Positions 1,696 to 47,060 of a stretch of DNA of 64,000 bases are shown here, piece by piece. Location of the stretch: positions 40,238,001-40,302,000 of the forward strand of contig JANJGN010000010.1 in NCBI GenBank assembly GCA_026770705.1, in the 5' to 3' direction. Both the position numbers and the translations under genes were made by a program. The notes beneath the pieces were generated by a model. The model saw nothing but the letters and a program-made list of their open reading frames with translations, had not been told where the DNA came from and ran no database searches. The DNA is from Isurus oxyrinchus (lineage: Eukaryota). How positions within the stretch are numbered: the first letter of the stretch is position 1; each line of letters starts with the position of its first letter.

Positions 1696-1709
1696 TTTGC
1701 GCAACTTAC

Positions 1710-3457: not shown

Positions 3458-3547
3458 TATTATCTTCATTCTTTTCACTGTCGGTTCCCTGTTCTTCATT
3501 TTCACTGTTAGGATCACTTTTAGCATTTGTAGAGTTTCCCTGCAAAT
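3458..3547 (-). CDS. Repeat exon, short type 90 nt
   Basis: Same splice sites; open. Confidence 0.68.
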
Positions 3548-5216: not shown

Positions 5217-5306
5217 TATTTTCTTCATTCTTTTCACTGTCGGTTCCCTGTTCTTCATTTTTACTGTTAGGATCACTTTTAGCATTTGTGGAGTTTCCCT
5301 GCAAAT
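5217..5306 (-). CDS. Repeat exon, short type 90 nt
   Basis: Same splice sites; open. Confidence 0.68.
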
Positions 5307-6964: not shown

Positions 6965-7054
6965 TATTTTCTTCATTCTTTACACCGTCGGTTCCCTGTT
7001 CTTCATTTTTACTGTTAGGATCACTTTTAGCATTTGTAGAGTTTCCCTGCAAAT
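6965..7054 (-). CDS. Repeat exon, short type 90 nt
   Basis: Same splice sites; open. Confidence 0.68.
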
Positions 7055-8711: not shown

Positions 8712-8831
8712 CATTTTCTTCATTGTTTACACCGTCGGTTCCCTGTTCACGGTTTGCTGGTTTGTCATTATGAACCTCCACCATTTCAGTCGTAGGTTCA
8801 CTTTTATCATTTGAAGAGTTTCCCTTCGAAT
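8712..8831 (-). CDS. Repeat exon, long type 120 nt (xSKGNSSNDKSEPTTEMVEVHNDKPANREQGTDGVNNEEN)
   Basis: Acceptor tttttgttcatgtag, donor G|gtaagt; phase 1-1; open. Confidence 0.68.
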
Positions 8832-10513
8832 CTACATGAACAAAAATATACATGCCATTGTAAACTCATTGCATACTGGATCTGAAACTAAACTGATAAT
8901 GCATTTGAATAATCATAAAAGAATACCTGTGCTTTTAGTAAAGCTTAATTTTCCTTCACCTCAGGACAGATATTATTATTTCTCAGCTAAGTGCTGCATG
9001 AGGGACCTTCAGAATAATGCAAAATTTCATCTCACAGTGAATAATAGTTCCTTGTATGCTTCCCTCCCTTTCCTCAATATACATCAATCAATTAGCTTCA
9101 AGTATTATTGGTAAAATTGTACAACGTAGTTTCACATGCGGCCCAGGAACCTACTAGCAACATATCTTTTTGGGGTTAAATCATTGTACAAAGAATGTAC
9201 TTCAATGTAACGATACATCAGTGAAGTTCTACGCTGAAAAATGGATCTATTCCTGAATTCTACATTTTGATCATGCTATCAAATATTATGACAAATGTGT
9301 GAATTCATCATTTCATCCAAAATGAGTTAGGTTTCAGACAAGATATCAGCTCAAGTCCTGGACTGGAACATCAACATATTTCCCACAGACTGACAGACCA
9401 GGTTTCTGAATAATGGAGTTATTACTTCGATGAATATGACAAGGCATTTTGTGCTTTTGATGCTTCAGTGAAAAACAATTCATATTTTCTCCATTTCAAA
9501 GAGTACATAAGCCATTTCGTTACAACTATTGCCTCCACCATCCATTGCAATCCCTTAGTATATTTACTTTCTCAGTACTTCCACTAGCATGCCTTATTTC
9601 TGCTGACTTCTCTACATCCCTTCTTTATTATGTGTTCTCTGTCCTTAACATAACATCAAGCAAAAAATGATATCTCAACTGGATTATTTTTAATCCTTTC
9701 TGAGAAAGGAACCTCCACCCAATTAGACAAGCTGAATTTTTGCTCCTCAAGTCCAGTATTGATGATGTGACAGAAGGAAAACAAAAAAGTGAATGCTAAC
9801 TTTGTCTAAATAGACATGTCCTGATCTGTTTCAAAGGATAGGGAATCTCCATTTGCACTAATGGGGCAGACATTCCGTTGCTCCAATTCTGCATGAGTGA
9901 TATCCACCTGGAGTTCGGCCAAGAACCTTCCTGTGGCAACTGATCACTCAGAGCATGATAGAGGGAGCCAAGAAAGCGTCCAAACAACAAGATTGTTCTG
10001 TTCACCTTTGCTTCTCATTTTGTTTAGTGTGTCAATCTCAAAAAAAACTGTTGGCCAACATCATCACTGAGCTAGGCCTACATCATCAATGAGATTTTGC
10101 TAACTGGAGCATTCTCCTACATTCTCCATCATCAATAAATTGTATTTCTATTTATTTGGTTAAATACTGCTTCGTCAGTATTCGTCAGGGGAATCTTCCA
10201 AATACACAACCATTGGGATGTAGATCAGGAGAAGCAGCAGGTAGAGGGGCACACCAACACATGCAACTTCCTCTCTAAGACTTACAAAATCCGGACTTGG
10301 AAATATTTGTCAATCCTTCATGGGCACTGGGTTGAAAACCAGAAACTGCCTCCCGATCAGCTCTGTGGAGGTACCTAGACCACACGGATTGCAGCAATTC
10401 CAGAACCAGCATTAGCATCATACCAAGGACAATTAATGATGCTAATAAATGTACGATCTGTCAAAACTACCCACATCCGATCAGCAAATAAATGAAAGCT
10501 TTGCGCAACTTAC

Positions 10514-10603
10514 TATTTTCTTCATTCTTTTCACTGTCGGTTCCCTGTTCTTCATTTTTACTGTTAGGATCACTTTTAGCATTTGTGGAGTTTCCCTGCA
10601 AAT
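10514..10603 (-). CDS. Repeat exon, short type 90 nt
   Basis: Same splice sites; open. Confidence 0.68.
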
Positions 10604-12261
10604 CTACATGAACAAAAATATACATGCCATTGTAAACTCATTGCATACAGGCGCTGAAACTACACTGGTAATGCAGTTCAATAATCATAAAAGAATACCT
10701 ATGTATTTAGTTAAGCTTAATGTGCCTTCATCTCAGGACAGATATTATTATTTCTCAGCTAAGTGCTGCATGAGGAGCCTTCAGAATAATGCAAAATTTC
10801 ATCTCGCAGTGAATAATAGTGCGTTGTAGGCTTCCCACCCTTTCCTCAATATACATCAATCAATTTGCTTCAAATATTATTGGTAAAATTGTACAACGTA
10901 GATTCACATGCCAGTGACATATCTTTTTGGGTTCAAATCATTGTACCAAGAACGTACTTTAATGTAACGATACATCAATGAAGTTCTACGCTGAGAAATG
11001 GATCTATTTCTGAATTCTCTATTTTGATCATTTTATCAAATATTATGACCAGTGTGAGAATTCAGCATTCCATCCAAAATGAGTTAGTTTTCAGACAAGA
11101 TATCTCCTCAAGTCCTGGACTGGAACATCAACACATATCCCCCTGACTGACAGAACAGGTTTCTGAATAATGGAGCTAATACTTCCTGGAATATGAGAAG
11201 GCACTTTGTGCTTTTGATTCTTTAGTGAAAAACAATTCATATTTTCTCCATTTCAAGGAATACATCAGCCATTTCATTACAACTATAGCCTCCACCATCC
11301 ATTGCAATCCCTTAGTATATTTACTTTCTCAGTACTTCCACTAGCATGCCTTATTTCTGATGACTTCTCTACATCCCTTCTTTATTATGTGTTCTCTGTC
11401 CTTAACATTACATCAAGCAAAAGAAAGATATCTCAACTGGAGTATTTTCAATCCTTTCTGAGAAAGGAAACTCCACCCAATTAGACAAGCTGAATTTTTG
11501 CTCCTCAAGTCCAGTATTGATAATGTGACAGAAGGAAAACAGAAAAGTGAATGCTAACTTTGTCTAAATAGACAAGTCCTGATCTGTTTCAAAGGATAGG
11601 GAATCTCCATTTGCACTAATGGGGCAGACGTTCCGTTGCTCCAATTCTGCATGAGTGATATCCACCTGGAGCTCGGCCAAGAACCTTCCTGTGGCACCTG
11701 ATCACTCAGAGCATGATAGAGGGAGCCAAGAAAGCGTCCAAACAACAAGATTGTTCTGTTCACCTTTGCTTCTCATTTTGTTTAGTGTGTCAATCTCAAA
11801 AAAAACTGTTGGCCAACATCATCACTGAGCTAGGCCTACATCATCAATGAGATTTTGCTAACTGGAGCATTCTCCTACATTCCCCATCATCAATAAATTG
11901 TATTTCTATTTATTTGGTTAAATACTGCTTCGTCAGGGGAATCTTCCAAATACACAACCATTGGGATGGAGATCAGGAGAAGCAGCAGGTAGAGGGGCAC
12001 ACCAACACATGCAACTTCCTCTCTAAGACTTACAAAATCCGGACTTGGAAATATGTGTCAATCCGTCATGGGCACTGGGTTGAAAACCAGAAACTGCCTC
12101 CCGATCAGCTCTGTGGATGTACCTAGACCACACGGATTGCAGCAATTCCAGAACCAGCATTAGCATCATACCAAGGACAATTAATGATGCTAATAAATGT
12201 ACGATCTGTCAAAATTATCCACATCCCATCGGCAAATGAATGAAAGCTTTGCGCAACTTAC

Positions 12262-12351
12262 TATTTTCTTCATTCTTTACACCGTCGGTTCCCTGTTCTT
12301 CATTTTTACTGTTAGGATCACTTTTAGCATTTGTAGAGTTTCCCTGCAAAT
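12262..12351 (-). CDS. Repeat exon, short type 90 nt
   Basis: Same splice sites; open. Confidence 0.68.
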
Positions 12352-14008
12352 CTACATGAACAAAAATATACATGCCATTGTAAACTCATTGCATACAGGC
12401 GCTGAAAATACATTGGTAATGCAGTTCAATAATCATAAAAGAATACCTATGTATTTAGTTAAGCTTAATGTGCCTTCTTCTCAGGACAGATATTATTATT
12501 TCTCAGCTAAGTGCTGCATGAGGGTCCTTCAGAATAATGCAAAATTTCATCTCGCAGTGAATAATAGTGCCTTGTAGGCTTCCCTCCTTTTCCTCAATAT
12601 ACATCAATCAATTAGCTTCAAATATTATTAGTAAAATTGTACAACATAGATTCACATGCGAGCGACATATCTTTTTGGGTTCAATCATTGTACCAAGAAC
12701 GTACTTCAATGTAACGATACATCAATGAAGTTCTACGCTATAAAATGGATCTATTTCTGAATTCTCTATTTTGATCATTTTATGAAATATTATGACCAGT
12801 GTGAGAATTCAGCATTCCATCCAAAATGAGTTAGTTTTCAGACAAGATATCTGCTCAAGTCCTGGACTGGAACATCAACACATATCCCCCTGACTGACAG
12901 AACAGGTTTCTGAATAATGGAGCTAATACTTCCTGGAATATGAGAAGGCACTTTGTGCTTTTGATTCTTTAGTGAAAAACAATTCATATTTTCTCCATTT
13001 CAAAGAATACATCAGCCATTTCATTACAACTATAGCCACCACCATCCATTGCAATCCCTTAGTATATTTACCAACTCAGTACTTCCACTAACATGCCTTA
13101 TTTCTGCTGACTTCTCTACATCCCTTCTTTATTATGTGTTCTCTGTCCTTAACATAACATCAAGCAAAAGAAAGATATCTCAACTGGAGTATTTTCAATC
13201 CTTTCTGAGAAAGGAACCTCCACCCAATTAGGCAAGCTGAATTTTTGCTCCACAAGTCCAGTATTGATAATGTGACAGAAGGAAAACAGAAAAGTGAATG
13301 CTAACTTTGTCTAAATAGACAAGTCCTGATCTGTTCCAAAGGATAGGGAATCTCCATTTGCACTAATGGGGCAGACATTCCGTTGCTCCAATTCTGCATG
13401 AGTGATATCCACCTAGAGCTCGGCCAAGAACCTTCCTGTGGCACCTGATCACTCAGAGCATGATAGAGGGAGCCAAGAAAGCGTCCAAACAACAAGATTG
13501 TTCTGTTCACCTTTGCTTCTCATTCTGTTTAGTGTGTCAATCTTAAAAAAAACTGTTGGCCTACATCATCACTGAGCTAGGCCAACATCATCAATGAGAT
13601 TTTGCTAACTGGAGCATTCTCCTACATTCCACATCATCAATAAATTTCATTTCTTTTTACTTGGTTAAATACTGCTTCATCAGGGGAATCGTCCAAATAC
13701 ACAACCATTGGGATCTAGATCAGGAGAAGCAGCAGGTAGAGGGGCACACAAACACATGCAACTTCCTCTCTAAGACTTACAAAATCCGGACTTGGAAATA
13801 TGTGTCAATCCTTCATGGGCACTGGGTTGAAAACCAGAAACTGCCTCCCGATCAGTTCTGTGGATGTACCTACACCACACGGATTGCAGCAATTCCAGAA
13901 CCAGCATTAGCATCATACCAAGGACAATTAATGATGCTAATAAATGTACGATCTGTCAAAATTACCCACATCCCATCGGCAAATAAATGAAAGCTTTGCG
14001 CAACTTAC

Positions 14009-14128
14009 CATTTTCTTCATTGTTTACACCGTCCATTCCCTGTTCACGGTTTGCTGGTTTGTCATTATGAACCTCCACCATTTCAGTCGTAGGTTCACTT
14101 TTATCATTTGAAGAGTTTCCCTTCGAAT
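14009..14128 (-). CDS. Repeat exon, long type 120 nt
   Basis: Same splice sites; open. Confidence 0.68.
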
Positions 14129-15810
14129 CTACATGAACAAAAATATACATGCCATTGTAAACTCATTGCATACTGGATCTGAAACTAAACTGATAATGCA
14201 TTTGAATAATCATAAAAGAATACCTGTGCTTTTAGTAAAGCTTAATTTTCCTTCACCTCAGGACAGATATTATTATTTCTCAGCTAAGTGCTGCATGAGG
14301 GACCTTCAGAATAATGCAAAATTTCATCTCACAGTGAATAATAGTTCCTTGTATGCTTCCCTCCCTTTCCTCAATATACATCAATCAATTAGCTTCAAGT
14401 ATTATTGGTAAAATTGTACAACGTAGTTTCACATGCGGCCCAGGAACCTACTAGCAACATATCTTTTTGGGGTTAAATCATTGTACAAAGAATGTACTTC
14501 AATGTAACGATACATCAGTGAAGTTCTACGCTGAAAAATGGATCTATTCCTGAATTCTACATTTTGATCATGCTATCAAATATTATGACAAATGTGTGAA
14601 TTCATCATTTCATCCAAAATGAGTTAGGTTTCAGACAAGATATCAGCTCAAGTCCTGGACTGGAACATCAACATATTTCCCACAGACTGACAGACCAGGT
14701 TTCTGAATAATGGAGTTATTACTTCGATGAATATGACAAGGCATTTTGTGCTTTTGATGCTTCAGTGAAAAACAATTCATATTTTCTCCATTTCAAAGAG
14801 TACATAAGCCATTTCGTTACAACTATTGCCTCCACCATCCATTGCAATCCCTTAGTATATTTACTTTCTCAGTACTTCCACTAGCATGCCTTATTTCTGC
14901 TGACTTCTCTACATCCCTTCTTTATTATGTGTTCTCTGTCCTTAACATAACATCAAGCAAAAAATGATATCTCAACTGGATTATTTTTAATCCTTTCTGA
15001 GAAAGGAACCTCCACCCAATTAGACAAGCTGAATTTTTGCTCCTCAAGTCCAGTATTGATGATGTGACAGAAGGAAAACAAAAAAGTGAATGCTAACTTT
15101 GTCTAAATAGACATGTCCTGATCTGTTTCAAAGGATAGGGAATCTCCATTTGCACTAATGGGGCAGACATTCCGTTGCTCCAATTCTGCATGAGTGATAT
15201 CCACCTGGAGTTCGGCCAAGAACCTTCCTGTGGCAACTGATCACTCAGAGCATGATAGAGGGAGCCAAGAAAGCGTCCAAACAACAAGATTGTTCTGTTC
15301 ACCTTTGCTTCTCATTTTGTTTAGTGTGTCAATCTCAAAAAAAACTGTTGGCCAACATCATCACTGAGCTAGGCCTACATCATCAATGAGATTTTGCTAA
15401 CTGGAGCATTCTCCTACATTCTCCATCATCAATAAATTGTATTTCTATTTATTTGGTTAAATACTGCTTCGTCAGTATTCGTCAGGGGAATCTTCCAAAT
15501 ACACAACCATTGGGATGTAGATCAGGAGAAGCAGCAGGTAGAGGGGCACACCAACACATGCAACTTCCTCTCTAAGACTTACAAAATCCGGACTTGGAAA
15601 TATTTGTCAATCCTTCATGGGCACTGGGTTGAAAACCAGAAACTGCCTCCCGATCAGCTCTGTGGAGGTACCTAGACCACACGGATTGCAGCAATTCCAG
15701 AACCAGCATTAGCATCATACCAAGGACAATTAATGATGCTAATAAATGTACGATCTGTCAAAACTACCCACATCCGATCAGCAAATAAATGAAAGCTTTG
15801 CGCAACTTAC

Positions 15811-15900
15811 TATTTTCTTCATTCTTTTCACTGTCGGTTCCCTGTTCTTCATTTTTACTGTTAGGATCACTTTTAGCATTTGTGGAGTTTCCCTGCAAAT
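15811..15900 (-). CDS. Repeat exon, short type 90 nt
   Basis: Same splice sites; open. Confidence 0.68.
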
Positions 15901-17558
15901 CTACATGAACAAAAATATACATGCCATTGTAAACTCATTGCATACAGGCGCTGAAACTACACTGGTAATGCAGTTCAATAATCATAAAAGAATACCTATG
16001 TATTTAGTTAAGCTTAATGTGCCTTCATCTCAGGACAGATATTATTATTTCTCAGCTAAGTGCTGCATGAGGAGCCTTCAGAATAATGCAAAATTTCATC
16101 TCGCAGTGAATAATAGTGCGTTGTAGGCTTCCCACCCTTTCCTCAATATACATCAATCAATTTGCTTCAAATATTATTGGTAAAATTGTACAACGTAGAT
16201 TCACATGCCAGTGACATATCTTTTTGGGTTCAAATCATTGTACCAAGAACGTACTTTAATGTAACGATACATCAATGAAGTTCTACGCTGAGAAATGGAT
16301 CTATTTCTGAATTCTCTATTTTGATCATTTTATCAAATATTATGACCAGTGTGAGAATTCAGCATTCCATCCAAAATGAGTTAGTTTTCAGACAAGATAT
16401 CTCCTCAAGTCCTGGACTGGAACATCAACACATATCCCCCTGACTGACAGAACAGGTTTCTGAATAATGGAGCTAATACTTCCTGGAATATGAGAAGGCA
16501 CTTTGTGCTTTTGATTCTTTAGTGAAAAACAATTCATATTTTCTCCATTTCAAGGAATACATCAGCCATTTCATTACAACTATAGCCTCCACCATCCATT
16601 GCAATCCCTTAGTATATTTACTTTCTCAGTACTTCCACTAGCATGCCTTATTTCTGATGACTTCTCTACATCCCTTCTTTATTATGTGTTCTCTGTCCTT
16701 AACATTACATCAAGCAAAAGAAAGATATCTCAACTGGAGTATTTTCAATCCTTTCTGAGAAAGGAAACTCCACCCAATTAGACAAGCTGAATTTTTGCTC
16801 CTCAAGTCCAGTATTGATAATGTGACAGAAGGAAAACAGAAAAGTGAATGCTAACTTTGTCTAAATAGACAAGTCCTGATCTGTTTCAAAGGATAGGGAA
16901 TCTCCATTTGCACTAATGGGGCAGACGTTCCGTTGCTCCAATTCTGCATGAGTGATATCCACCTGGAGCTCGGCCAAGAACCTTCCTGTGGCACCTGATC
17001 ACTCAGAGCATGATAGAGGGAGCCAAGAAAGCGTCCAAACAACAAGATTGTTCTGTTCACCTTTGCTTCTCATTTTGTTTAGTGTGTCAATCTCAAAAAA
17101 AACTGTTGGCCAACATCATCACTGAGCTAGGCCTACATCATCAATGAGATTTTGCTAACTGGAGCATTCTCCTACATTCCCCATCATCAATAAATTGTAT
17201 TTCTATTTATTTGGTTAAATACTGCTTCGTCAGGGGAATCTTCCAAATACACAACCATTGGGATGGAGATCAGGAGAAGCAGCAGGTAGAGGGGCACACC
17301 AACACATGCAACTTCCTCTCTAAGACTTACAAAATCCGGACTTGGAAATATGTGTCAATCCGTCATGGGCACTGGGTTGAAAACCAGAAACTGCCTCCCG
17401 ATCAGCTCTGTGGATGTACCTAGACCACACGGATTGCAGCAATTCCAGAACCAGCATTAGCATCATACCAAGGACAATTAATGATGCTAATAAATGTACG
17501 ATCTGTCAAAATTATCCACATCCCATCGGCAAATGAATGAAAGCTTTGCGCAACTTAC

Positions 17559-17648
17559 TATTTTCTTCATTCTTTACACCGTCGGTTCCCTGTTCTTCAT
17601 TTTTACTGTTAGGATCACTTTTAGCATTTGTAGAGTTTCCCTGCAAAT
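17559..17648 (-). CDS. Repeat exon, short type 90 nt
   Basis: Same splice sites; open. Confidence 0.68.
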
Positions 17649-19305
17649 CTACATGAACAAAAATATACATGCCATTGTAAACTCATTGCATACAGGCGCT
17701 GAAAATACATTGGTAATGCAGTTCAATAATCATAAAAGAATACCTATGTATTTAGTTAAGCTTAATGTGCCTTCTTCTCAGGACAGATATTATTATTTCT
17801 CAGCTAAGTGCTGCATGAGGGTCCTTCAGAATAATGCAAAATTTCATCTCGCAGTGAATAATAGTGCCTTGTAGGCTTCCCTCCTTTTCCTCAATATACA
17901 TCAATCAATTAGCTTCAAATATTATTAGTAAAATTGTACAACATAGATTCACATGCGAGCGACATATCTTTTTGGGTTCAATCATTGTACCAAGAACGTA
18001 CTTCAATGTAACGATACATCAATGAAGTTCTACGCTATAAAATGGATCTATTTCTGAATTCTCTATTTTGATCATTTTATGAAATATTATGACCAGTGTG
18101 AGAATTCAGCATTCCATCCAAAATGAGTTAGTTTTCAGACAAGATATCTGCTCAAGTCCTGGACTGGAACATCAACACATATCCCCCTGACTGACAGAAC
18201 AGGTTTCTGAATAATGGAGCTAATACTTCCTGGAATATGAGAAGGCACTTTGTGCTTTTGATTCTTTAGTGAAAAACAATTCATATTTTCTCCATTTCAA
18301 AGAATACATCAGCCATTTCATTACAACTATAGCCACCACCATCCATTGCAATCCCTTAGTATATTTACCAACTCAGTACTTCCACTAACATGCCTTATTT
18401 CTGCTGACTTCTCTACATCCCTTCTTTATTATGTGTTCTCTGTCCTTAACATAACATCAAGCAAAAGAAAGATATCTCAACTGGAGTATTTTCAATCCTT
18501 TCTGAGAAAGGAACCTCCACCCAATTAGGCAAGCTGAATTTTTGCTCCACAAGTCCAGTATTGATAATGTGACAGAAGGAAAACAGAAAAGTGAATGCTA
18601 ACTTTGTCTAAATAGACAAGTCCTGATCTGTTCCAAAGGATAGGGAATCTCCATTTGCACTAATGGGGCAGACATTCCGTTGCTCCAATTCTGCATGAGT
18701 GATATCCACCTAGAGCTCGGCCAAGAACCTTCCTGTGGCACCTGATCACTCAGAGCATGATAGAGGGAGCCAAGAAAGCGTCCAAACAACAAGATTGTTC
18801 TGTTCACCTTTGCTTCTCATTCTGTTTAGTGTGTCAATCTTAAAAAAAACTGTTGGCCTACATCATCACTGAGCTAGGCCAACATCATCAATGAGATTTT
18901 GCTAACTGGAGCATTCTCCTACATTCCACATCATCAATAAATTTCATTTCTTTTTACTTGGTTAAATACTGCTTCATCAGGGGAATCGTCCAAATACACA
19001 ACCATTGGGATCTAGATCAGGAGAAGCAGCAGGTAGAGGGGCACACAAACACATGCAACTTCCTCTCTAAGACTTACAAAATCCGGACTTGGAAATATGT
19101 GTCAATCCTTCATGGGCACTGGGTTGAAAACCAGAAACTGCCTCCCGATCAGTTCTGTGGATGTACCTACACCACACGGATTGCAGCAATTCCAGAACCA
19201 GCATTAGCATCATACCAAGGACAATTAATGATGCTAATAAATGTACGATCTGTCAAAATTACCCACATCCCATCGGCAAATAAATGAAAGCTTTGCGCAA
19301 CTTAC

Positions 19306-19425
19306 CATTTTCTTCATTGTTTACACCGTCCATTCCCTGTTCACGGTTTGCTGGTTTGTCATTATGAACCTCCACCATTTCAGTCGTAGGTTCACTTTTA
19401 TCATTTGAAGAGTTTCCCTTCGAAT
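19306..19425 (-). CDS. Repeat exon, long type 120 nt
   Basis: Same splice sites; open. Confidence 0.68.
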
Positions 19426-21096
19426 CTACATGAACAAAAATATACATGCCATTGTAAACTCATTGCATACTGGATCTGAAACTAAACTGATAATGCATTT
19501 GAATAATCATAAAAGAATACCTGTGCTTTTAGTAAAGCTTAATTTTCCTTCACCTCAGGACAGATATTATTATTTCTCAGCTAAGTGCTGCATGAGGGAC
19601 CTTCAGAATAATGCAAAATTTCATCTCACAGTGAATAATAGTTCCTTGTATGCTTCCCTCCCTTTCCTCAATATACATCAATCAATTAGCTTCAAGTATT
19701 ATTGGTAAAATTGTACAACGTAGTTTCACATGCGGCCCAGGAACCTACTAGCAACATATCTTTTTGGGGTTAAATCATTGTACAAAGAATGTACTTCAAT
19801 GTAACGATACATCAGTGAAGTTCTACGCTGAAAAATGGATCTATTCCTGAATTCTACATTTTGATCATGCTATCAAATATTATGACAAATGTGTGAATTC
19901 ATCATTTCATCCAAAATGAGTTAGGTTTCAGACAAGATATCAGCTCAAGTCCTGGACTGGAACATCAACATATTTCCCACAGACTGACAGACCAGGTTTC
20001 TGAATAATGGAGTTATTACTTCGATGAATATGACAAGGCATTTTGTGCTTTTGATGCTTCAGTGAAAAACAATTCATATTTTCTCCATTTCAAAGAGTAC
20101 ATAAGCCATTTCGTTACAACTATTGCCTCCACCATCCATTGCAATCCCTTAGTATATTTACTTTCTCAGTACTTCCACTAGCATGCCTTATTTCTGCTGA
20201 CTTCCCAACATCCCTTCTTTATTATGTGTTCTCTGTCCTTAACATAACATCAAGCGAAAGAATGATAACTCAACTGGAGTATTTTCAATCCTTTCTGAGA
20301 AAGGAACCTCCACCCAATTAGACAAGCTGAATTTTTGCTCCTCAAGTCCAGTATTGATGATGTGACAGAAGGAAAACAGAAAAGTGAATGCTAACTTTGT
20401 CTAAATAGACAAGTCCTGATCTGTTCCAAAGGATAGGGAATTCCATTTGCACTAATGGGGCAGACATTCCGTTGCTCCAATTCTGCATGAGTGATATCCA
20501 CCTAGAGCTCGGCCATGAACGTTCCTGTGGCACCTGATCACTCAGAGCATGATAGAGGGAGCCAAGAAAGCGTCCAAACAACAAGATTGTTCTGTTCACC
20601 TTTGCTTCTCATTTTGTTTAGTGTGTCAATCTTAAAAAAAACTGTTGGCCTACATCATCACTGAGCTCGGCCTACATCATCAATGAGATTTTGCTAACTG
20701 GAGCATTCTCCTACATTCCCCATCATCAATAAATTGTATTTCTTTTTATTTGGTTAAATAATGCTTCGTCAGGGGAATCTTCCAAATACACAAACATTGT
20801 GATGTAGATCAGAGAAGCAGCAGGTAGAGGGGCACACCAACACATGCAACTTCCTCTCCAAGACTTACAAAATCCGGACTTGGAAATATATGTCAATCCA
20901 TCATGGGCACTGGGTTGAAAACCAGAAACTGCCTCCCGATCAGCTCTGTGGATGTACCTAGACCACACGGATTGCAGCAATTCCAGAACCAGCATTAGCA
21001 TCATACCAAGGACAATTAATGATGCTAATAAATGTACGATCTGTCAAAATTATCCACATCCCATCGGCAAATAAATGAAAGCTTTGCGCAACTTAC

Positions 21097-21186
21097 TATT
21101 TTCTTCATTCTTTACACCGTCGGTTCCCTGTTCTTCATTTTTACTGTTAGGATCACTTTTAGCATTTGTAGAGTTTCCCTGCAAAT
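21097..21186 (-). CDS. Repeat exon, short type 90 nt (xLQGNSTNAKSDPNSKNEEQGTDGVKNEEN)
   Basis: Acceptor tttttgttcatgtag, donor A|gtaagt; phase 1-1; open. Confidence 0.68.
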
Positions 21187-22843
21187 CTACATGAACAAAA
21201 ATATACATGCCATTGTAAACTCATTGCATACAGGCGCTGAAAATACACTGGTAATGCAGTTCAATAATCATAAAAGAATACCTATGTATTTAGTTAAGCT
21301 TAATGTGCCTTCTTCTCAGGACAGATATTATTATTTCTCAGCTAAGTGCTGCATGAGGGTCCTTCAGAATAATGCAAAATTTCATCTCGCAGTGAATAAT
21401 AGTGCCTTGTAGGCTTCCCTCCTTTTCCTCAATATACATCAATCAATTAGCTTCAAATATTATTAGTAAAATTGTACAACATAGATTCACATGCGAGCGA
21501 CATATCTTTTTGGGTTCAATCATTGTACCAAGAACGTACTTCAATGTAACGATACATCAATGAAGTTCTACGCTATAAAATGGATCTATTTCTGAATTCT
21601 CTATTTTGATCATTTTATGAAATATTATGACCAGTGTGAGAATTCAGCATTCCATCCAAAATGAGTTAGTTTTCAGACAAGATATCTGCTCAAGTCCTGG
21701 ACTGGAACATCAACACATATCCCCCTGACTGACAGAACAGGTTTCTGAATAATGGAGCTAATACTTCCTGGAATATGAGAAGGCACTTTGTGCTTTTGAT
21801 TCTTTAGTGAAAAACAATTCATATTTTCTCCATTTCAAAGAATACATCAGCCATTTCATTACAACTATAGCCACCACCATCCATTGCAATCCCTTAGTAT
21901 ATTTACCAACTCAGTACTTCCACTAACATGCCTTATTTCTGCTGACTTCTCTACATCCCTTCTTTATTATGTGTTCTCTGTCCTTAACATAACATCAAGC
22001 AAAAGAAAGATATCTCAACTGGAGTATTTTCAATCCTTTCTGAGAAAGGAACCTCCACCCAATTAGGCAAGCTGAATTTTTGCTCCACAAGTCCAGTATT
22101 GATAATGTGACAGAAGGAAAACAGAAAAGTGAATGCTAACTTTGTCTAAATAGACAAGTCCTGATCTGTTCCAAAGGATAGGGAATCTCCATTTGCACTA
22201 ATGGGGCAGACATTCCGTTGCTCCAATTCTGCATGAGTGATATCCACCTAGAGCTCGGCCAAGAACCTTCCTGTGGCACCTGATCACTCAGAGCATGATA
22301 GAGGGAGCCAAGAAAGCGTCCAAACAACAAGATTGTTCTGTTCACCTTTGCTTCTCATTCTGTTTAGTGTGTCAATCTTAAAAAAAACTGTTGGCCTACA
22401 TCATCACTGAGCTGGGCCAACATCATCAATGAGATTTTGCTAACTGGAGCATTCTCCTACATTCCACATCATCAATAAATTTCATTTCTTTTTATTTGGT
22501 TAAATACTGCTTCATCAGGGGAATCGTCCAAATACACAACCATTGGGATCTAGATCAGGAGAAGCAGCAGGTAGAGGGGCACACAAACACATGCAACTTC
22601 CTCTCTAAGACTTACAAAATCCGGACTTGGAAATATGTGTCAATCCTTCATGGGCACTGGGTTGAAAACCAGAAACTGCCTCCCGATCAGTTCTGTGGAT
22701 GTACCTACACCACACGGATTGCAGCAATTCCAGAACCAGCATTAGCATCATACCAAGGACAATTAATGATGCTAATAAATGTACGATCTGTCAAAATTAC
22801 CCACATCCCATCGGCAAATAAATGAAAGCTTTGCGCAACTTAC

Positions 22844-22963
22844 CATTTTCTTCATTGTTTACACCGTCCATTCCCTGTTCACGGTTTGCTGGTTTGTCAT
22901 TATGAACCTCCACCATTTCAGTCGTAGGTTCACTTTTATCATTTGAAGAGTTTCCCTTCGAAT
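22844..22963 (-). CDS. Repeat exon, long type 120 nt
   Basis: Same splice sites as the 24635 exon; open. Confidence 0.68.
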
Positions 22964-24634
22964 CTACATGAACAAAAATATACATGCCATTGTAAACTCA
23001 TTGCATACTGGATCTGAAACTAAACTGATAATGCATTTGAATAATCATAAAAGAATACCTGTGCTTTTAGTAAAGCTTAATTTTCCTTCACCTCAGGACA
23101 GATATTATTATTTCTCAGCTAAGTGCTGCATGAGGGACCTTCAGTATAATGCAAAATTTCATCTCACAGTGAATAATAGTTCCTTGTATGCTTCCCTCCC
23201 TTTCCTCAATATACATCAATCAATTAGCTTCAAGTATTATTGGTAAAATTGTACAACGTAGTTTCACATGCGGCCCAGGAACCTACTAGCAACATATCTT
23301 TTTGGGGTTAAATCATTGTACAAAGAATGTACTTCAATGTAACGATACATCAGTGAAGTTCTACGCTGAAAAATGGATCTATTCCTGAATTCTACATTTT
23401 GATCATGCTATCAAATATTATGACAAATGTGTGAATTCATCATTTCATCCAAAATGAGTTAGGTTTCAGACAAGATATCAGCTCAAGTCCTGGACTGGAA
23501 CATCAACATATTTCCCACAGACTGACAGACCAGGTTTCTGAATAATGGAGTTATTACTTCGATGAATATGACAAGGCATTTTGTGCTTTTGATGCTTCAG
23601 TGAAAAACAATTCATATTTTCTCCATTTCAAAGAGTACATAAGCCATTTCGTTACAACTATTGCCTCCACCATCCATTGCAATCCCTTAGTATATTTACT
23701 TTCTCAGTACTTCCACTAGCATGCCTTATTTCTGCTGACTTCTCTACATCCCTTCTTTATTATGTGTTCTCTGTCCTTAACATAACATCAAGCAAAAAAT
23801 GATATCTCAACTGGATTATTTTCAATCCTTCTGAGAAAGGAACCTCCACCCAATTAGACAAGCTGTATTTTTGCTCCTCAAGTCCAGTACTGATAATGTG
23901 ACAGAAGGAAAACAGCAAATTGAATGCTAACTTTGTCTACATAGACAAGTTCCGATCAGTTCCAAAGGACATGGAATCTCCATTTGCACTAATGTGGCAG
24001 TCCTTCAGTTGCTGCAATTCTGCATGAGTGATATCCACCTAGAGCTTGGCCAAGAACCTTCCAGTGGCACTAGCTCACTCAGAGCATGGTAGAGGGAGCC
24101 AATAAAGGGTCCAAACAACAAGATTGTTCTGTTCACCTTTGCTTCTCATTTTGTTTAGTGTGTCAATCTTAAAAAAAACTGTTGGCCTACATCATCACTG
24201 AGCTAGGCCTACATCATCAATGAGATTTTGCTAACTGGAACATTCTCCTACAGTCCACATCAAGAATAAATTGTATTTCTTTTTATTTGGTTAAATACTG
24301 CTTCCTCAAGGGAATCTTCCAAATTCACAACCATTGGGATCTAGATAAGGAGGGGCAGCAGGTAGAGGGGCACACCAAAACAATCAACTACCTCTCTAAG
24401 ACTTACAAAATCCGGACTTGGAAATATGTGTCAATCCTTCATGGGCACTGGGTTGAAAACCAGAAACTGCCTCCCGATCAGCTCTGTGGATGTAGCTAAA
24501 CCACACGGATTGCAGCAATTCCAGAACCAGCATTAGCAGCATACCAAGGACAATTAATGATGCTAATAAATGTACGATCTGTCAAAATTACCCACATCCC
24601 ATCGGCAAATAAATGAAAGCTTTGCGCAACTTAC

Positions 24635-24754
24635 CATTTTCTTCATTGTTTACACCGTCCGTTCCCTGTTCACGGTTTGCTGGATTGTCATTATGAACCT
24701 CTACCATTTTATTCGTAGGTTCACTTTTATCAATTGAAGAGTTTCCCTTCGAAT
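24635..24754 (-). CDS. Repeat exon, long type 120 nt (DSKGNSSIDKSEPTNKMVEVHNDNPANREQGTDGVNNEEN)
   Basis: Acceptor tttttgttcatgtag, donor G|gtaagt; phase 1-1; open. Confidence 0.68.
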
Positions 24755-26403
24755 CTACATGAACAAAAATATACATGCCATTGTAAACTCATTGCAAACA
24801 GGATCTGAAACTACACTGACAATGCATTTGAATAATCATAAAAGAATACCTGTGCATTTAGTTAAGCTTAATGTGCCTTCACCTCAGGACATATTATTAT
24901 TTCTCAGCTAAGTGCTGCATGAGGGGCCTTCAGAATAATGCAAAATCTCATCTCACAGTGAATAATAGTTCCTTGTAGGCTACCCTCCCTTTCCTGAATA
25001 TACATCAAACAATTAGATTCACATATTATTGGTAAAATTGTATAACGTAGATTCACATGCTAGCAACATATCTTTTTGGGTTCAAATCATTGTACCAAGA
25101 ACGTACTTCAATGTAACAATACATCAATGAAGTTCTACGCTGAAAAATGGATCTATTTCTGAATTCTCTATTTTGATCATTTTATCAAATATTATGACCA
25201 GTGTGAGAATTCAGCATTCCATCCAAAATGAGTTAGTTTTCAGACAAGATATCTGCTCAAGTCCTGGACTGGAACATCAACACATATCCCCCTGACTGAC
25301 AGAACAGGTTTCTGAATAATGGAGCTAATACTTCCTGGAATATGAGAAGGCACTTTGTGCTTTTGATTCTTTAGTGAAAAACAATTCATATTTTCTCCAT
25401 TTCAAAGAATACATCAGCCATTTCATTACAACTATAGCCTCCCCCATCCATTGCAATCCCTTAGTATATTTACCAACTCAGTACTTCCACTAGCATGCCT
25501 TATTTCTGCTGACTTCTCTACATCCCTTCTTTATTGTGAGTTCTCTGTCCTTAACATAACATCAAGCAAAAGAAAGATATCTCAACTGGAGTATTTTCAA
25601 TCCTTTCTGAGAAAGGAACCTCCACCCAATTAGACAAGCTGAATTTTTGCTCCTCAAGTCCAGTATTGATGATGTGACAGAAGGAAAACGGAAAAGTGAA
25701 TGCTAACTTTGTCTAAATAGACAAGTCCTGATCTGTTCCAAAGGATAGGGAATCTCCATTTGCACTAATGGGGCAGACATTCCATTACTCCAATTCTGCA
25801 TGAGTGATATCCACCTAGAGCTCGGCCAAGAACCTTCCTGCGGCACCTGATCACTCAGAGCATGATAGAGGGAGCCAAGAAAGCGTCCAAACAACAAGAT
25901 TGTTCTGTTCACCTTTGCTTCTCATTTTGTTTAGTGTGTCAATCTTATAAAAAACAGCTGGACTACATCATCACTGAGCTAGGCCTACATCATCAATGAG
26001 ATTTTGCTAACTGTAACATTCTCTTACATTTCACATCATCAATAAATTGTATTTCTTTTTATTTGGTTAAATACTGTTTCCTCAAGGGAATCTTCCAAAT
26101 ACACAACCATTGGGATCTAGATCAGGAGAAGCAGCAGGTAGAGGGGCACACCAACACATGCAACTTCCTCTCCAAGACTTACAAAATCCAGACTTGGAAA
26201 TATGTGTCAATCCTTCATGGGCACTGGGTTGAAAACCAGAAACTGCCTCCCGATCAGCTCTGTGGATGTACTTAAACCACACGGATTGCAGCGATTCCAG
26301 AACCAGCATTACCAACATACAATTAATGATTCTAATAAATGTACGATCTGTCAAAATTACCCACATCCCATCGGCAAATAAATGAAAGCTATGCGCAATT
26401 TAC

Positions 26404-26523
26404 CATTTTCTTCATTGTTCACACCGTCCGTTCCCTGTTCACGGTTTTCTGGATTGTCATTATGAACCTCTACCATTTTAGTCATAGGATCTCTTTTATC
26501 ATTTGAAGAGTTTCCTTGTGAAT
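26404..26523 (-). CDS. Repeat exon, long type 120 nt (DSQGNSSNDKRDPMTKMVEVHNDNPENREQGTDGVNNEEN)
   Basis: Acceptor ttcgttcaagtag, donor G|gtaaat; phase 1-1; open. Confidence 0.62.
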
Positions 26524-26561: not shown

Positions 26562-28300
26562 GGGCCTGAATTTTCATTGGCCGGGGAGCAGATCAGGAGC
26601 GTGCGGAGGCGGGGACGGGTGCTGCCATTTTACGCGGATGTGTAAATTAAGGCCCGCCTAGTGTATTTCTCGACTCTTCACCCATTCTAGGCTGCTCACA
26701 ATGGCAAGTGCAACGCCATAGCCATGGTGAGTGGGCCAGTCCGGAGGGTAGGCCAGTAGAGCAGGCCAGGCTGGAGGCTATGGTGGGGGGCCAGTTTGTC
26801 TCTGTTTTTTGGATGGCTGCCTTGCTGCCCTCCTCGATGAGGTGGCAGCACGGTGGGAAGTGCTGGTCACCCAGGATGGGAGGAGGAGGCCCTTCCACAT
26901 TACAAAACTTGCCTGTGAGGATGTGACGGAGGTGGTGAGCTTCCGTGATGTGGTGCAGCACACCTGGATCCAGTGTCGCAAGCGCTTCAATGACTTGCTG
27001 CGCTCTGGCAGGGTGAGCATCATGTTGGCATCGGGCATTTAACCCAGTAGGTCGGCTTTCCCCCTGCTGCCACCACCCCCAAGTTTGAGTGTCGTGACTG
27101 AATGATTGAACGCATGTATCCTTTGCTGGGCGGGCAAGTAGATACTGCCCATGCTGAGGCCAGCGTGAGAGGGTGATGAGATGTGTTTTGCCCCCGCACA
27201 TGTGTTACACTGAGTCCTACATGATTAGTTTGGGGGCAACCTGGAGGAGCTGCACCTAGGCACTGTGTTAGAACTCCAGGACATGTCCAAGTCAGGGTGA
27301 TGACACGCTGGGAGGGGACCTTCAAGGTGGCGTGGCAACGAATCATCTGCTGCCCTCTGTGCTCCACATGCTGTGCCTCCTTGCTATGGAAGGATATACT
27401 GTGTGGTGCTTAATGTGATGTAGGCAGCATGTGTCCAACAGGGTGGTGGGGAGGTGTGGAGCAGGCTTAGCATCTTGGTGTGAGTGCTCGGCAGCAGTGG
27501 GGTGAGGAGGCACTGGAGCCCTCATGTGTCCCACTCTGGTTGGTGTGGGCCATGCATGAGCAGAGTCCATGTGCAATTTGCACAAATCAATACTTGTCTC
27601 TCATTTTCAGGAGAAGAATGCATAGACTGTGGCCGAGCATATGAGGACTAGCGGTGGCCAGGTGCAGATTGCCATTCTAAGCCGTTTCGAGCAGGAGGCC
27701 CTGGATCTGGAGAGGCACCATGCACCCAGGTCCACTGGTGTCAGTGAGGCTGGGGTGCCATCACCAGATATTTATGCCCAACAGTGAGGTCAGTATCGTC
27801 CTCCCAATGGCCATAACACTGCTGAATGTTACATGATTCAATTTTGCAACATGGCTTGACCATTGGCTTTGGAATGATGAGAGCATAATGATCCGGGGGA
27901 CAGGGAAGAACTTTGTCATTGTCTCCACACTACGTGATCCACTGTCCTTGTTCTTCCTTTCAGCATCATCGAAGCAGGGCCGGGAGGAGGAGCAACAGAG
28001 GCCTTTCAGCTTCATTGACAGGCTGCATGAATCCTCCCATTGCATCCCCCCACCCAGCAGCTGTTCAGCTGCATGCAGCTAGCCTACGAGAGATTCTGGA
28101 GGGAGAAGTGTGTGTGTGTGGCAGAGCCTTTCGGAGCCTCATGCAAGCACTCTCCAACATAAGCGGATCCTTTCCACACTCATTTCAATCTCCTGAGCAT
28201 TTCCAATGTTGCCTGCTGGGGTTCATTTTCAGTTAACCATCTGAGCTGACCTGTATCTCTGCCTGCCCAGTGATCACACTCCCATACAGCACCTGATCAC
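26562..28300 (+). mobile_element. PIF/Harbinger-like DNA transposon remnant with a Myb/SANT-like ORF fragment
   Basis: Starts with TIR-like GGGCCTGAATTTT. ORF 26809-27042 (EDVTEVVSFRDVVQHTWIQCRKRFNDLLRSGR) resembles the Harbinger Myb/SANT-like DNA-binding protein. Right end approximate. Confidence 0.7.
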
Positions 28301-28339
28301 ACCCACCACGACTTTCATTTCACTTATATTAGGCAGCGT

Positions 28340-29317
28340 GGTAGCACTACGGTTTTTCTTTCACTCCCCTGTCTTTTCCCCTCTCCCAGTCACCCACTTC
28401 CTTTCCCCCATCACTGTCAACCCCCCACCCCCCAACTTCCACCTCCACTCCATGACCCACCAATCACAACCCTTTTCTTTCAGGGATGTCCAGGTTCCCT
28501 TCCTTCCTGAAACTCCCACCCCCATCCACATTAACCTGCCTGGCCTCCTTCTTCCCAGAGTCTGTGTCTGCCTCTAAGCCCCCACCAACCACCCCCTCCA
28601 TCCCTTCTACCGCTACCGTCAAGCCCTCACCCTCCCACTTGACTCTGCCCTCGGTCATTCTCACCTTTCCTTTGTACCATGCCCACACTCAGGTCTCTCC
28701 CCAGGAGGCAGTCATGGGCTCATCAGAGCCCTCGCTTGTACATTCACTTGGACATCCCCCTCCAGGCTCCTTCCCACCTTGGAACTGCTTCCCCGTCTGG
28801 ACTCCTTCCTCCCCCTGGACTCCTTTTCCTCTCCACACACCTTCCCCCCACACCCCCGGACTCCTTCCTCCCCCTGGCATCCTTTCTGCCTTTGCACTCC
28901 TTGCCCCACCAGACTCCCTTCCTCCCCCTAGATTCCTTTCTATCTCTGCACTCCTTCCTTCCTCTGGATTTCTTTCTCCCCCTGAGCTTCTTCACCTCTA
29001 CACATTCCTTCCCCCCTCAGAATCCCTTCCCTTACAAATTCCACCCCTCCTTACACCTATCTCCCCAGTTACCGTCTTCTTCCCCTCCTCCCCTGTATTC
29101 CCTCTACCCCCCAATCTCCTTCCCAACACCTTCGTCCACCCCTTCAACCCCCATCCCCCTGACACCTTCTTTCCCCCCTCCCAACCTCACCACCCCGACA
29201 CCTTTGTTCACCCCTCCCGACCTCCAACACCGTCGAACCCCAACCTCCAAACCTCACCACACCCTGATACCACTCCTCTCTCAGTTGATCCTAGACCTTC
29301 ATCTCCCACACCCATCT
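28340..29317. repeat. ~1-kb C/T-rich low-complexity tract (G-rich on the minus strand)
   Basis: Extreme pyrimidine skew; degenerate ctccttcc(c)ccc motifs. Confidence 0.85.
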
Positions 29318-30527
29318 TTTGCCAACTGGAACACTCTCCTACGTTCCACAACATCAATAAATTATGTTTCTTTTTATTTGAGCAAATACTGCTTCCTCAA
29401 GGGCAGTTTCCAAACACACAACCACTGACATTTAGAAGAACGAGGGCTGCAAGTGCATGGGAAAACCACCACAAGTAATTTCCTCTCCACGATGTACACA
29501 ATCCTGACTTGGGAATTTGTGTCCATTCCTTCATCGTCACTGGGTTGAAAACCTGAAAATCCCTCCCTTAGAGCTCTGCGGCTGTAACTACACCACACTG
29601 ATCACAGTGATTCCAGAATGATGATCACTCAAGGTCAATGAAAGATGCCAATAAATGTATCATGTGTCAACGTTCAGTGAGCAAATTAATGAAAACTTTG
29701 TGCAAGTTATTTTTTTCTTCTTTGATCCCACCTTCAGCTCCTGGCTTACCTTTTTCTGTATTGACATCTTGTGAACCTTCCATTTGATTCTTGGTATTGC
29801 TTTGATCATTTGAAGAGTTTTGCTGTGATTCTACATGAATTGAAAAATGCACGTTAATGTAAACACATTGTATACAAGTGCAGGAACTATAATGATTAAG
29901 CATTTGCTTAGTGATAAATGAATACATATGTATTTAGTTAAGCTCATTGCACCCATATCTAAGGACAAATATTATTATTTCTCAGATAAGTGCTGCATCT
30001 TAAGAATAATGCAATATTGCATCTCAGTGAATAATAACTTCTTTTGCTGCCCTGAATATACATCAGTCAATTGATTTCAAATGTTATCAGCAGAATTGCA
30101 TAATGTTGTTATACACAAGCTCAGGAATATACTGGCAAAATATCTTCTTGGGGTCGAATGACAACCGTGTGAATCCATCAACCCATGAAATAGGCACGAG
30201 GTTTCAGTCAAAATATTTCCTCAAGCCTCGAACTGGAATGTCACCACATTTCTTTGTGACTGACAGAAAAGGTTATGCTCCACCCAACCAAACAAGCTGA
30301 GTTTTTGATCCTCAATTCCAGTAGCGATGTTATAACAAAAGGAAAACAGGGAAGTAGATGCTAACTAACTAAAGAGACAAGTCCTGAGCTGCTTGAAATG
30401 CCACATTCTGTTTGTTTGCACACAGATGGGGCAGGCTACCAGGTGCTGCAATTCTGTATGAGTGATGTCCACAATGAGCTTGGCTGAGAACCTTTGAGTG
30501 GCCCCAGGTCACTCAGAGCATGATAAT
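29318..30527. repeat. Strongly diverged, internally deleted monomer of the same repeat
   Basis: Colinear matches such as catcaataaatt, ctacatgaa, tattattatttctcag.taagtgctgcat, ctccacccaa, agacaagtcctga and cactcagagcatgata. Confidence 0.88.
29750..29830 (-). CDS. Diverged repeat exon, 81 nt (ESQQNSSNDQSNTKNQMEGSQDVNTEK)
   Basis: Acceptor ttttcaattcatgtag is homologous to the array exons; donor AAG|gtaagc; phase 1-1; open. Confidence 0.65.
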
Positions 30528-35760: not shown

Positions 35761-38444
35761 ACTTTGGTGGTTACAAATTGCATTCCCTACACCTGATTAA
35801 CAGCTCAGATGAATTTGTAGCTCAAGGCATTTTATCGAATTTATTATCTTCACTATCCTTTCCCTTCTCGCTACTGAGAGGATCAGAGTTTTTTTTGCAC
35901 TGCTTCATCGTTATCATCTGTTCTTCTTATATCCTCAACTATCAACATTGGAGTTAAATGAAACAGCTTCTTCTTTAATGTTGCTGAGGTTGAGGCTTTC
36001 TGAAATAAAAAACCTCTGCCCATTCAAGCAATCTGAATTTTAGCTTCTGAAATCTTGCACTGCTGCTGCACCAGAAGCAAAACACAAGAGCAACTCAAAA
36101 TCCCAAACAGGCAGGTTAGATCCTGTACAAATGCCAGGGATGTGCTACCTGCAATAATGGCACAGGTTTCCAGAAGTCGCAAGGATATATGTGAGACACC
36201 TTCCCTGGCATAGGACCTGAACATTTGATTGGCACCAAGTCACATAGAGGATGGTACCTTACTTTCTTTTCTCATTAGTAACTTTCGTCTTTTATAGAGG
36301 GTGCCTGTAATCCTTCATTAATGCAAAAAATCCCTATGAAGGATGTAAAGGCCATTGTGTAGAAGTGCAGAAACAGCAATGATATTGCTATTGGCCAATA
36401 TTAAACGATTACACAACTCTGTCAAAGGAGAAGTCTCTTTATTTCTCAGACTGATGCTGCATTAAATACTTTCAGATAAATACTGAATTGTTTCTCATTC
36501 TTATTGATTTCTCTTTTTGCTCTGATTTTATTCCAGTCAAGTAGACTCGAACAGCACAGAAGAAAATTCCACAACTTGGTTATAAAATTAAATAATTATA
36601 TAAAATACAGAAATGTGAAATTTGTGCAACTCCAATACAGGGCCATTACTCTTTCCTTAAGCCCTTTGCGTTGCTCTTGCATTGTTGCCAGGATCTTCCA
36701 GTTCCGTCAAAAGCCAGTGGAGCTTTGGCTGTCCCATCGCCTCCCCTGCAGTGGGTACCGCCACGGAGGGGCTGGAAAATCCCGGCCAATGTTCCTCTGA
36801 GAAACATTGAGGCCATTGTGTCACAGACAGGTGGAAAACAGCATGCATGCTGACTCTCCACATTCTGCGCACAAAGCGTTTTGGAGTCAGGCCCCGTTTG
36901 GAAAGCAGTTTGGGTCTGGGCTCAGTACCTCACATTTCCCACTTGACACGGCTGCTGTACAAGGGGATGGGACATACTGCCTGCTGAGAGTATGAATTCT
37001 CCTTGTTTTCATTAACATTTTCTTTCTTTCGTTAACATCATGTAACAGAATTACATTACCCAGAGCGGCAGCAGCTTCAGGTAAGAGGAAGGAGTCAAGT
37101 AAAGAAGAAACATAAACTGAACTAGGTTGAAGAAAGAGGACAGTTTGAGGTTGAGGGGAGTACTGATATGAACTGAGTGAGGAAAAGAGAAAAAAAAGTA
37201 GATCGAAGGTGCTAACATGAATTGGTGTAGGCAATGACAGCATGAACTTGGGTAGACTGCTGAGCATGAGTCCTGGGATCCTGGGTAGGCAATGCTAGCA
37301 TGAGAGGGGGTAGATAGTGGAGGGTTGGGCAGAGGAACTGGGAGGAGATGAATTATAGGGCAAACCAAGGAAAAGGGGAAACGGTGCCTCTGGCCTGGGA
37401 ATGATGCAGAAACATTAAGGTGACCTCCCAGCAGTTTCCTGTGGGTTGGGGGGCATGGGGCCTTTGTGTCTGGCCACTCCATGGCCCACAGAGTAGACCA
37501 CCAGTGCCAATGGCAACCCTGCCAACCTGAAACTGCCACTGGGGAAGTTATCCCCGTCCAACCACCGGGGGGGCTTGCCCACCTGGCCATGATATTGAAA
37601 TAAAAGTGGCTACTTAACTGTGAGGGCAGTTCAACATGGAGTCACCCTTCCTTTCCTCTTGCAGCCTCAGCAGTGGCTACCTCTAATGGTGATTGTGATT
37701 GAGGCAGCAACTCTGGGGCTGTAAAATAGCCTCTGCTGTCCTGCTATCCACCAACATGGGCTAGGGACACACATTTTGTGCTGATGTTGAGACCCACAGC
37801 ATGCTGTTAAAATCCTGGCATTGTGTTACACCTTAACAGGAATATAAACACTTTAATAATCAAATGTCACAAGAGGCTGTACCACAAACGTCTGTGATTT
37901 TTAAACAAGAAATGTCTGCCATGATCTTCTTCCATTTTTTAAAGTTGTTCATCAGGATTTTGTAGGTTTGTCGATTGTTGTGCATGGAACAGATACATAA
38001 GATTTGGTCCAACTCAGGGATTGATAAAATCCTGTTATTACTATAAGAACTGAAGTCAAAATTAAAATTCACACCCATATAATGTATCAGAAGGCACAAA
38101 ATAAGAGCCATCTGTTGCATCCTTAGAACAGTCAGTGGTAAGATTCCAATTCAGTGAGGTGGGAATTTCACTTTGCTCTTTTTCTCAAATATAACACTGA
38201 CATTAAATATGTTTGGCAGCACGAACAATTGGATAACTTGAGTCTGTGCTAAATTTGGTTGCGCTTATGTCGTTGAACTTGGAGAATGGAAACTTCAAAT
38301 CTAAAGCCTACTTTTATCTGAATGATATGCAGCTTGGGATCTAGATAGAAAAATGAAAAAAAAACTGTCTGGTACAAATGGCTAATAGCTTACTTGTTCC
38401 AGTTTCTGGTAGGTGTGGCACAGGTTTAGGGTCAGGTGACTTAC

Positions 38445-38486
38445 TGTTCAGAAATGATAGCTTTTCTTCATCATCTTGATTATGAT
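38445..38486 (-). CDS. Candidate cytoplasmic exon (DHNQDDEEKLSFLN); alternative in-frame donor at 38394
   Basis: 42 nt, acceptor ccatctag and donor A|gtaagt, phase 1-1, open in the TM-exon frame. Confidence 0.5.
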
Positions 38487-41504: not shown

Positions 41505-41609
41505 CTTTTGACTGCCTTCTCCAAATGAAAATTCCACAGCCAAGTGTTATACATAATAATACCGTAACACAGATTATAGCTGAAATTACAGGTGAATGAT
41601 TCCCAGGTT
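41505..41609 (-). CDS. NCR3LG1: B7-H6-like gene, transmembrane exon (EPGNHSPVISAIICVTVLLCITLGCGIFIWRRQSK)
   Basis: 105 nt, acceptor ctttacag and donor AAG|gtaaga, phase 1-1; hydrophobic helix followed by a basic stop-transfer WRR. Confidence 0.88.
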
Positions 41610-46739: not shown

Positions 46740-47060
46740 CTGTTACAGTCAGTACAGATTCTATTGTGAAACCATCAGGAAATGTTGAATGTTTCACTAC
46801 ACATCCGTACTTGTCACCATCATCTTTCACTGTTGGTCGAATCATCAGTTGACTGGAAACATTAAATGTTTTGTCATTATTGTTGGCAAAATGATTTGTA
46901 TAGCTTTCTAATGAAACATTTTCTGTTCTTGACTTTGATATCTTGATCCAGCTGATATCCAACTGCCGAGGATAAAACCCAGCGACGTCACATCTCACAG
47001 AACCCTCTGAACCACTCAGAATCGTAATGGATTGTGTAGACAAGCTAATGTTTGGTCGAG
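46740..47060 (-). CDS. NCR3LG1: B7-H6-like gene, IgC1 exon (ARPNISLSTQ...CDVAGFYPRQLDISW...NNDKTFNVSSQL...DGDKYGCVVKHSTF...VLTVT)
   Basis: 321 nt, acceptor ttctgcacag and donor G|gtgagt, phase 1-1. C1-set motifs CxxxGFYP, W, TFxxxSxL and YxCxVxH. Confidence 0.9.

Follow-up and report, generated by a model that had tools for sequence, protein, structure and literature searches.

The stretch of DNA analysed here (the window) comprises 64,000 nt of contig JANJGN010000010.1 of the shark Isurus oxyrinchus (positions 40,238,001 to 40,302,000; contig coordinates carry the prefix C10). Its minus strand contains a gene, referred to as gene A, whose exons for the signal peptide, the IgV and IgC1 domains, the transmembrane (TM) segment and the first cytoplasmic stretch all have AG/GT ends and form a single open frame into an exon of 81 nt, M1 (Table 1). 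Downstream lies an array of 67 tandem units, 59 with a 90-nt exon and eight with a 120-nt exon, all with an AG acceptor and free of stop codons, and a second diverged monomer, Mlast, ends the array (C10:40142238). Since M1 and the array are located downstream of the TM exon, both encode cytoplasmic tail.

Table 1. Features of gene A, exon M1 and the tail array, in window positions.
Feature	Position	Strand	Basis or remark
Signal-peptide exon of gene A	62687..62735	-	ATG, GT donor, phase 1; matches P0001 residues 1-19
IgV exon of gene A	56173..56511	-	Pfam V-set above cut-off; 90% to P0001
IgC1 exon of gene A	46740..47060	-	Pfam C1-set above cut-off; 92% to P0001
Transmembrane exon of gene A, 105 nt; hydrophobic run, then RRQSK	41505..41609	-	Sequence and translation; aligns to TM of P0002/P0003
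First cytoplasmic exon of gene A, 93 nt, phase 1-1	38394..38486	-	Sequence and translation; alignment to shark models
Exon M1, 81 nt, phase 1-1, open	29750..29830	-	Sequence; a contig of run X5 is identical over the whole exon and no further
Used donor gtaagc, site D81 (+81)	29744..29749	-	Overlaps GGT AAG codon pair of the longer frame; X5 contig
Purine-rich 39-nt segment, exonic in array units, intronic in M1 when D81 is used	29711..29749	-	79% purine vs 44% after
Latent in-frame donor gtggga, site D99 (+99)	29726..29731	-	GT in 10/10 monomers
Dead array-homologous donor ataact, site D120 (+120), context AAA/ataact	29705..29710	-	Follows 29711
In-frame TGA for M1 without donor use (53-aa predicted read-through)	29667..29669	-	Sequence
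Stretch of 2.75 kb between M1 and first array unit, no homology to array unit	26562..29316		Sequence comparison
16 of 67 tandem 1.75-kb units, one 90- or 120-nt phase 1-1 exon each	1..26523	-	Array runs on to C10:40143023
First array exon, 120 nt	26404..26523	-	Not the partner of 29750 in the only contig seen
Nearest 90-nt array exon, of the kind spliced to 29750; like 45 other units it shows 1 mismatch	21097..21186	-	Comparison with X5 contig

Judged by its sequence, the host of M1 is a B7-H6/NCR3LG1-like gene. The Cetorhinus protein P0001 is named NCR3LG1-like and, in a search of solved structures, has human B7-H6 as its best match (E 5e-29, as compared to 2e-15 for CD276). Taken alone and per domain, the V exon of gene A too scores higher with B7-H6 (48 bits in one stretch) than with CD276 (25 bits per stretch), and the ectodomain composed of IgV and IgC1 is closest to B7-H6 among solved structures. 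KCNJ11 and USH1C, the neighbours of NCR3LG1 in human, are found on the contig of gene A at a distance of 14 Mb. The topology of gene A reads as type I, with a signal exon, a single hydrophobic run and basic residues after it, and its exons apart from the tail array are intact. Within the TM exon the Cetorhinus model P0001 changes frame and stops at 273 aa, either by a frameshift or by a model error in Cetorhinus. Between 47945 and 56134 the V-C1 intron is filled by a retroelement, presumably Penelope-like, in inverted copies whose frames resemble reverse transcriptase. Human B7-H6 is laid out as IgV, IgC1 and TM (PMC10684670), and gene A resembles this NKp30 ligand (PDB 3pv6, 4zso, 6yjp) in having IgV, IgC1 and one TM segment. 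Different from B7-H6, however, gene A lies within a cluster of V exons and its tail is an acidic low-complexity exon array of up to ~2,100 aa in a model that includes all 64 units with a GTAA donor. With read-through of Mlast also assumed, this modelled tail has 2,115 aa (22% Asn, 14% Glu, 12% Ser) and consists of linkers without a domain exon.

The cluster comprises ~9 B7-H6-like V exons on one strand (C10:39.64-40.29 Mb). One paralogue, gene B (C10:40052333-40082920), is ~97% identical to gene A from the TM region on and carries the monomers M1, M2, M3, M4 and Mlast (four further monomers, versus 68 in gene A). Its signal-exon donor is dead, a 1-nt deletion leaves its C1 exon with 320 nt, and a 78-nt deletion has removed both M1 donors; because of the first two of these defects gene B is probably a pseudogene. 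Exons for a tail domain of 140 aa, repeated and in some cases broken, occur at C10:39.69-39.97 Mb in neighbouring paralogues only and are absent from genes A and B; this domain is labelled Ig-like owing to a weak similarity with the C1 exon and not by a fold test. The proteins P0002 of Mustelus asterias and P0003 and P0004 of Scyliorhinus torazame share the ectodomain, the TM segment and the first tail exon with gene A, and a linker of P0002 matches M1 at the equivalent place in 15/37 residues (E 0.023) and runs through the same G-K-P. Their tails, however, alternate the 140-aa domain with short linkers, whereas genes A and B have no exon for that domain. Among 150 listed homologues eight were inspected, and five of these have long repeat tails without that domain. 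A search of C10:39.84-40.04 Mb gave no outgroup monomer, and a profile of six monomers found no protein among 740 candidates. Our literature search found nothing on shark B7-H6 tails, by which we do not claim absence from print, and passages of PMC10751288 contain nothing bearing on the tail.

The donors of the array units read GTAA in 64 of 67 cases, ATAAGT in two and GTGTGT in one. The units with a lost or damaged donor (C10:40206567, 40201328 and 40144786) are left with weak in-frame GTs at +42 and +69. Two adjacent units (C10:40151806-40161151) are each ~2.9 kb longer, with spacings of 4673 and 4672, and represent a duplicated insertion. The first array exon is chimera-like in that its start matches the old monomer M2 of gene B and its end is of the array type. 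The acceptor of Mlast is AA in the assembly of gene A and AG in gene B, which reflects a different allele or an assembly error. The predicted read-through of Mlast ends in VFMYLPMGSGQC, which includes a YxxM motif. A 3.6-kb repeat after the array was considered as terminal exon and rejected, as it is a CA/CT microsatellite.

M1 encodes the peptide SQQNSSNDQSNTKNQMEGSQDVNTEK. An earlier, sequence-only reading of this DNA had described a diverged copy without GT at the position homologous to the array donor, with a strong donor exactly 39 nt upstream that yields an 81-nt phase 1-1 exon, with a persisting acceptor ttcatgtag and with large flanking deletions, and all of this is borne out on the minus strand: the acceptor stands just before 29830, the donor AAG/gtaagc at 29750/29749 and AAA/ataact after 29711. 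Around M1, some 1.2 kb of the 1.77 kb of a unit remain, with upstream gaps of ~306 and ~91 nt. The series of three in-frame exon lengths holds as well, with 81 nt in M1 and 90 or 120 nt in the array units.

Is the donor at 29750 used? Runs X5, X2, X3 and X1 of the same species were compared with the window between 24400 and 30900, the nature of X5 as RNA being a guess. Pieces on the exons of this region came from X5 alone, and neither the blanks of X1-X3 nor the uncovered M1 read-through were counted as evidence; over 15.4 kb, X1, X2, X4 and X5 gave predominantly transposon matches and no usable joint. An X5 contig of 114 nt agrees with 29750-29830 in every letter and then has a loose end of 30 letters, which differs by one letter from 46 of the 59 90-nt units, by 6 from the exon beginning at 26523 and by 22 from the genomic continuation. 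As the contig leaves the genome at 29750, the donor is used and its partner is a 90-nt unit, a join carried by 30 letters as against a bridging rule of 31, with three unseen letters on the acceptor side. Thus, of the junction 29750 to 26523 that the sequence-only reading had put forward as a check, the donor stands and the partner does not, on one contig of one run. The join means that the three 120-nt exons are skipped or that this animal has a different array. At the other end of the array, a second X5 contig (1222 nt) joins an exon of the last-unit type to the start of Mlast, despite the AA acceptor in the assembly; a second AG lies in frame 12 nt inside Mlast. A further X5 contig of 159 nt is an exact match to the intron stretch 30168-30326 and represents unspliced RNA or DNA in the run.

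Which way, then, did the donor move? Each monomer has at most three GT sites, at +81, +99 and +120, and we compared their states in ten monomer rows. All three sites occupy codon positions 2-3 of Gly, Ser, Arg or Cys codons; an xGT codon that serves as donor is necessarily split in phase 1, and the exon comes out as phase 1-1 with any of the three. Nine of the ten rows have GT at +81, with the full gtaagc in M1 and in both copies of Mlast, and the site is therefore not a compensating gain of M1. In the 59 short units a 30-nt deletion removes the +81 GT. At +120 the first donor position is A in the three old lineages M1, M2 and Mlast, and G in the six rows of the array clade (support 99/99), so that the direction proposed earlier, a donor shift in M1, is probably reversed; the presence of gtaagc in the equally diverged Mlast goes against such a shift too. 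These states are explained by one A-to-G gain on the array stem, while for the opposite direction the same loss must have happened repeatedly, or the root must lie on that stem. The monomer tree has no outgroup, and the direction is based on the tip states and two trees. In the intron-only tree the midpoint falls between M1 and the rest and not on the array stem; flank identities, however, do not reject a root there (76% vs 81%, p 0.06), and with such a root a single loss of +120 would be equally short. On balance we consider it likely from these site states that the +120 donor was re-activated in the array and that M1 did not acquire a new one. Purine content drops at +120 from 77-82% to 41-54% in 6/6 monomers checked and a residual TAAGT is found there, and on account of this switch and consensus remnant +120 probably served as an exon end at a yet earlier time.

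It thus seems fairly probable that M1 uses an old donor motif which was carried by the ancestor, and that a second donor, 39 nt beyond it, was switched on again in the array. According to this explanation +120 would have been the exon end long ago and would have ceased to work by the time of the ancestor that the monomers share; a single A-to-G change on the array stem would have restored it, after which +81 would have been weakened or deleted. With three in-phase GTs, whichever site is chosen would yield a phase 1-1 exon. The tail exons may then be interchangeable acidic, Asn/Ser-rich spacer modules that set the length of the tail, and selection, if any, would act on the open frame and not on the peptide.

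The direction favoured by the sequence-only reading, in which +120 was the ancestral donor and its loss in M1 was compensated by selective fixation of the in-frame +81 donor, appears rather unlikely to us. It can draw on the likeness of +120 to an old exon end, on the recurrence of G-to-A donor loss within the array (2/67 units) and on the fact that only paralogue B, broken at other sites as well, has lost the +81 donor of M1 by deletion; in addition, the motif GAEGGI of the 39-nt segment recurs three times in the tail of the homologue P0041, a weak point as this is one of 157 proteins. It would, however, require that two or three lineages underwent an identical G-to-A change, or else that the root lies on the array stem, and the gtaagc at +81, being common to Mlast, was there beforehand. 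Moreover, an in-frame outcome is likely by chance. In a neutral simulation that scored donors by an approximate weight matrix, with 27% divergence, four starting sequences and two thresholds, the strongest donor left kept the frame at a frequency of 0.41-0.75.

A further point against this direction is that no conservation of sequence is seen. Exon identity is lower than flank identity in 6/6 pairs, which are not independent of one another, and significantly so in three pairs without M1; between M1 and the array type the exon is 73-76% and the flanks are 77.5-78.2% identical (p 0.48-0.66). The dN/dS of M1, which with 26 codons is short and of low power, ranges from 0.65 to 1.29 against six array-type exons and is 0.40 against M2. 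The proposed test, that the exon be conserved above its flanks, therefore came out negative. Among the 56 regular units of the 67, 29/90 exon columns vary as compared to 441/1632 intron columns (p 0.28), and the exon variants of the array are 10 synonymous and 22 non-synonymous (expected share 0.22, p 0.29). The array would lack stops by chance with a probability of 0.27 and exon indels with one of 0.31. Exon indels are in frame in 2/2 cases (deletions of 30 and 3 nt), intron indels in 4/23 (p 0.05), and the joint chance of the in-frame indels and the in-frame donor is 0.012-0.083. Frame preservation, which had been called the best internal evidence of selection, hence leaves a plausible and modest frame constraint on the tail exons; constraint on their sequence is not seen, and the in-frame donor by itself is what neutral change gives in 41-75% of cases. 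In a separate comparison the array-type exon 24635-24754 is 87.7% identical to C10:40053409 and the introns are 96.3% identical (p 0.002); this faster divergence of the exon is possibly due to diversifying selection or to conversion limited to introns.

The array numbers also bear on whether the tail exons are spliced but functionless, the product of a neutral tandem expansion that is tolerated because the units are frame-symmetric. The lack of a purifying signal, the sizeable chance of finding neither stops nor exon indels and the three of 67 units with a lost or damaged donor all agree with this. On the other hand, the remaining exons of gene A are intact, and five other homologues inspected have different long repeat tails, so that long tails recur in this family. 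We regard a functionless tail as unlikely.

A third alternative starts from the in-frame TGA, which is present in both M1 and Mlast: the monomer would have begun as a terminal exon, and M1 would still be a switch between splicing at 29750 for a long tail and the TGA at 29669 with polyadenylation for a short one. Two deletions, one of 9 nt in the M1 read-through and one of 78 nt in paralogue B, both keep the frame, which makes 4/4 indels as against 4/23 (p 0.004, a set chosen after the fact). An AATAAA lies at 29378-29373, +452 of M1, and the contig that enters Mlast continues for 1145 nt, with an AATAAA at +1001 in the genome. Then again, 30 letters of that continuation are visible, AATAAA is frequent in such AT-rich DNA, and the 78-nt deletion lies in a probable pseudogene; we accordingly hold the switch to be improbable. 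In its full form, which we likewise hold to be improbable, M1 would be the switch of an immune ligand with a tail tunable from ~85 to >2,000 residues, read-through and polyadenylation giving the short form and splicing at 29750 opening the 67-unit array, and the array would have arisen by duplication of a terminal exon and recruitment of three different in-phase latent donors after the ancestral tail domains had been lost.

Two further known systems can be compared with gene A. Titin PEVK is a symmetric-exon array of many short, same-phase, low-complexity exons that can be skipped without frameshift, and the tail of gene A is built likewise; unlike PEVK, however, its array consists of near-identical 1.75-kb units including their introns and belongs to an immune ligand, of which it forms the tail. 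Orthologous exons often differ by in-frame donor shifts; for human and mouse, bioRxiv 10.64898/2026.06.30.735536 gives a donor shift of 24 bp and corrects 452 exon boundaries. As in M1, the donor of such orthologous exons moves by a multiple of three; here the difference is between paralogous units of one gene, three sites are in phase and one state has been amplified 67-fold.

The in-frame donor shift itself is thus nothing new in kind, and by these numbers it counts only weakly as evidence of selection. Codons of the type xGT followed by AAG or GGG stock a low-complexity exon with in-phase spare donors, so that little selection is needed for the frame to survive donor turnover. The host locus is more unusual: a shark B7-H6-like gene without the tail domains of its orthologue models, in which one linker exon has undergone 67-fold amplification, and transcripts support the array at either end. 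The locus of gene A adds to the signs of repeated remodelling of B7-H6 tails in cartilaginous fish.
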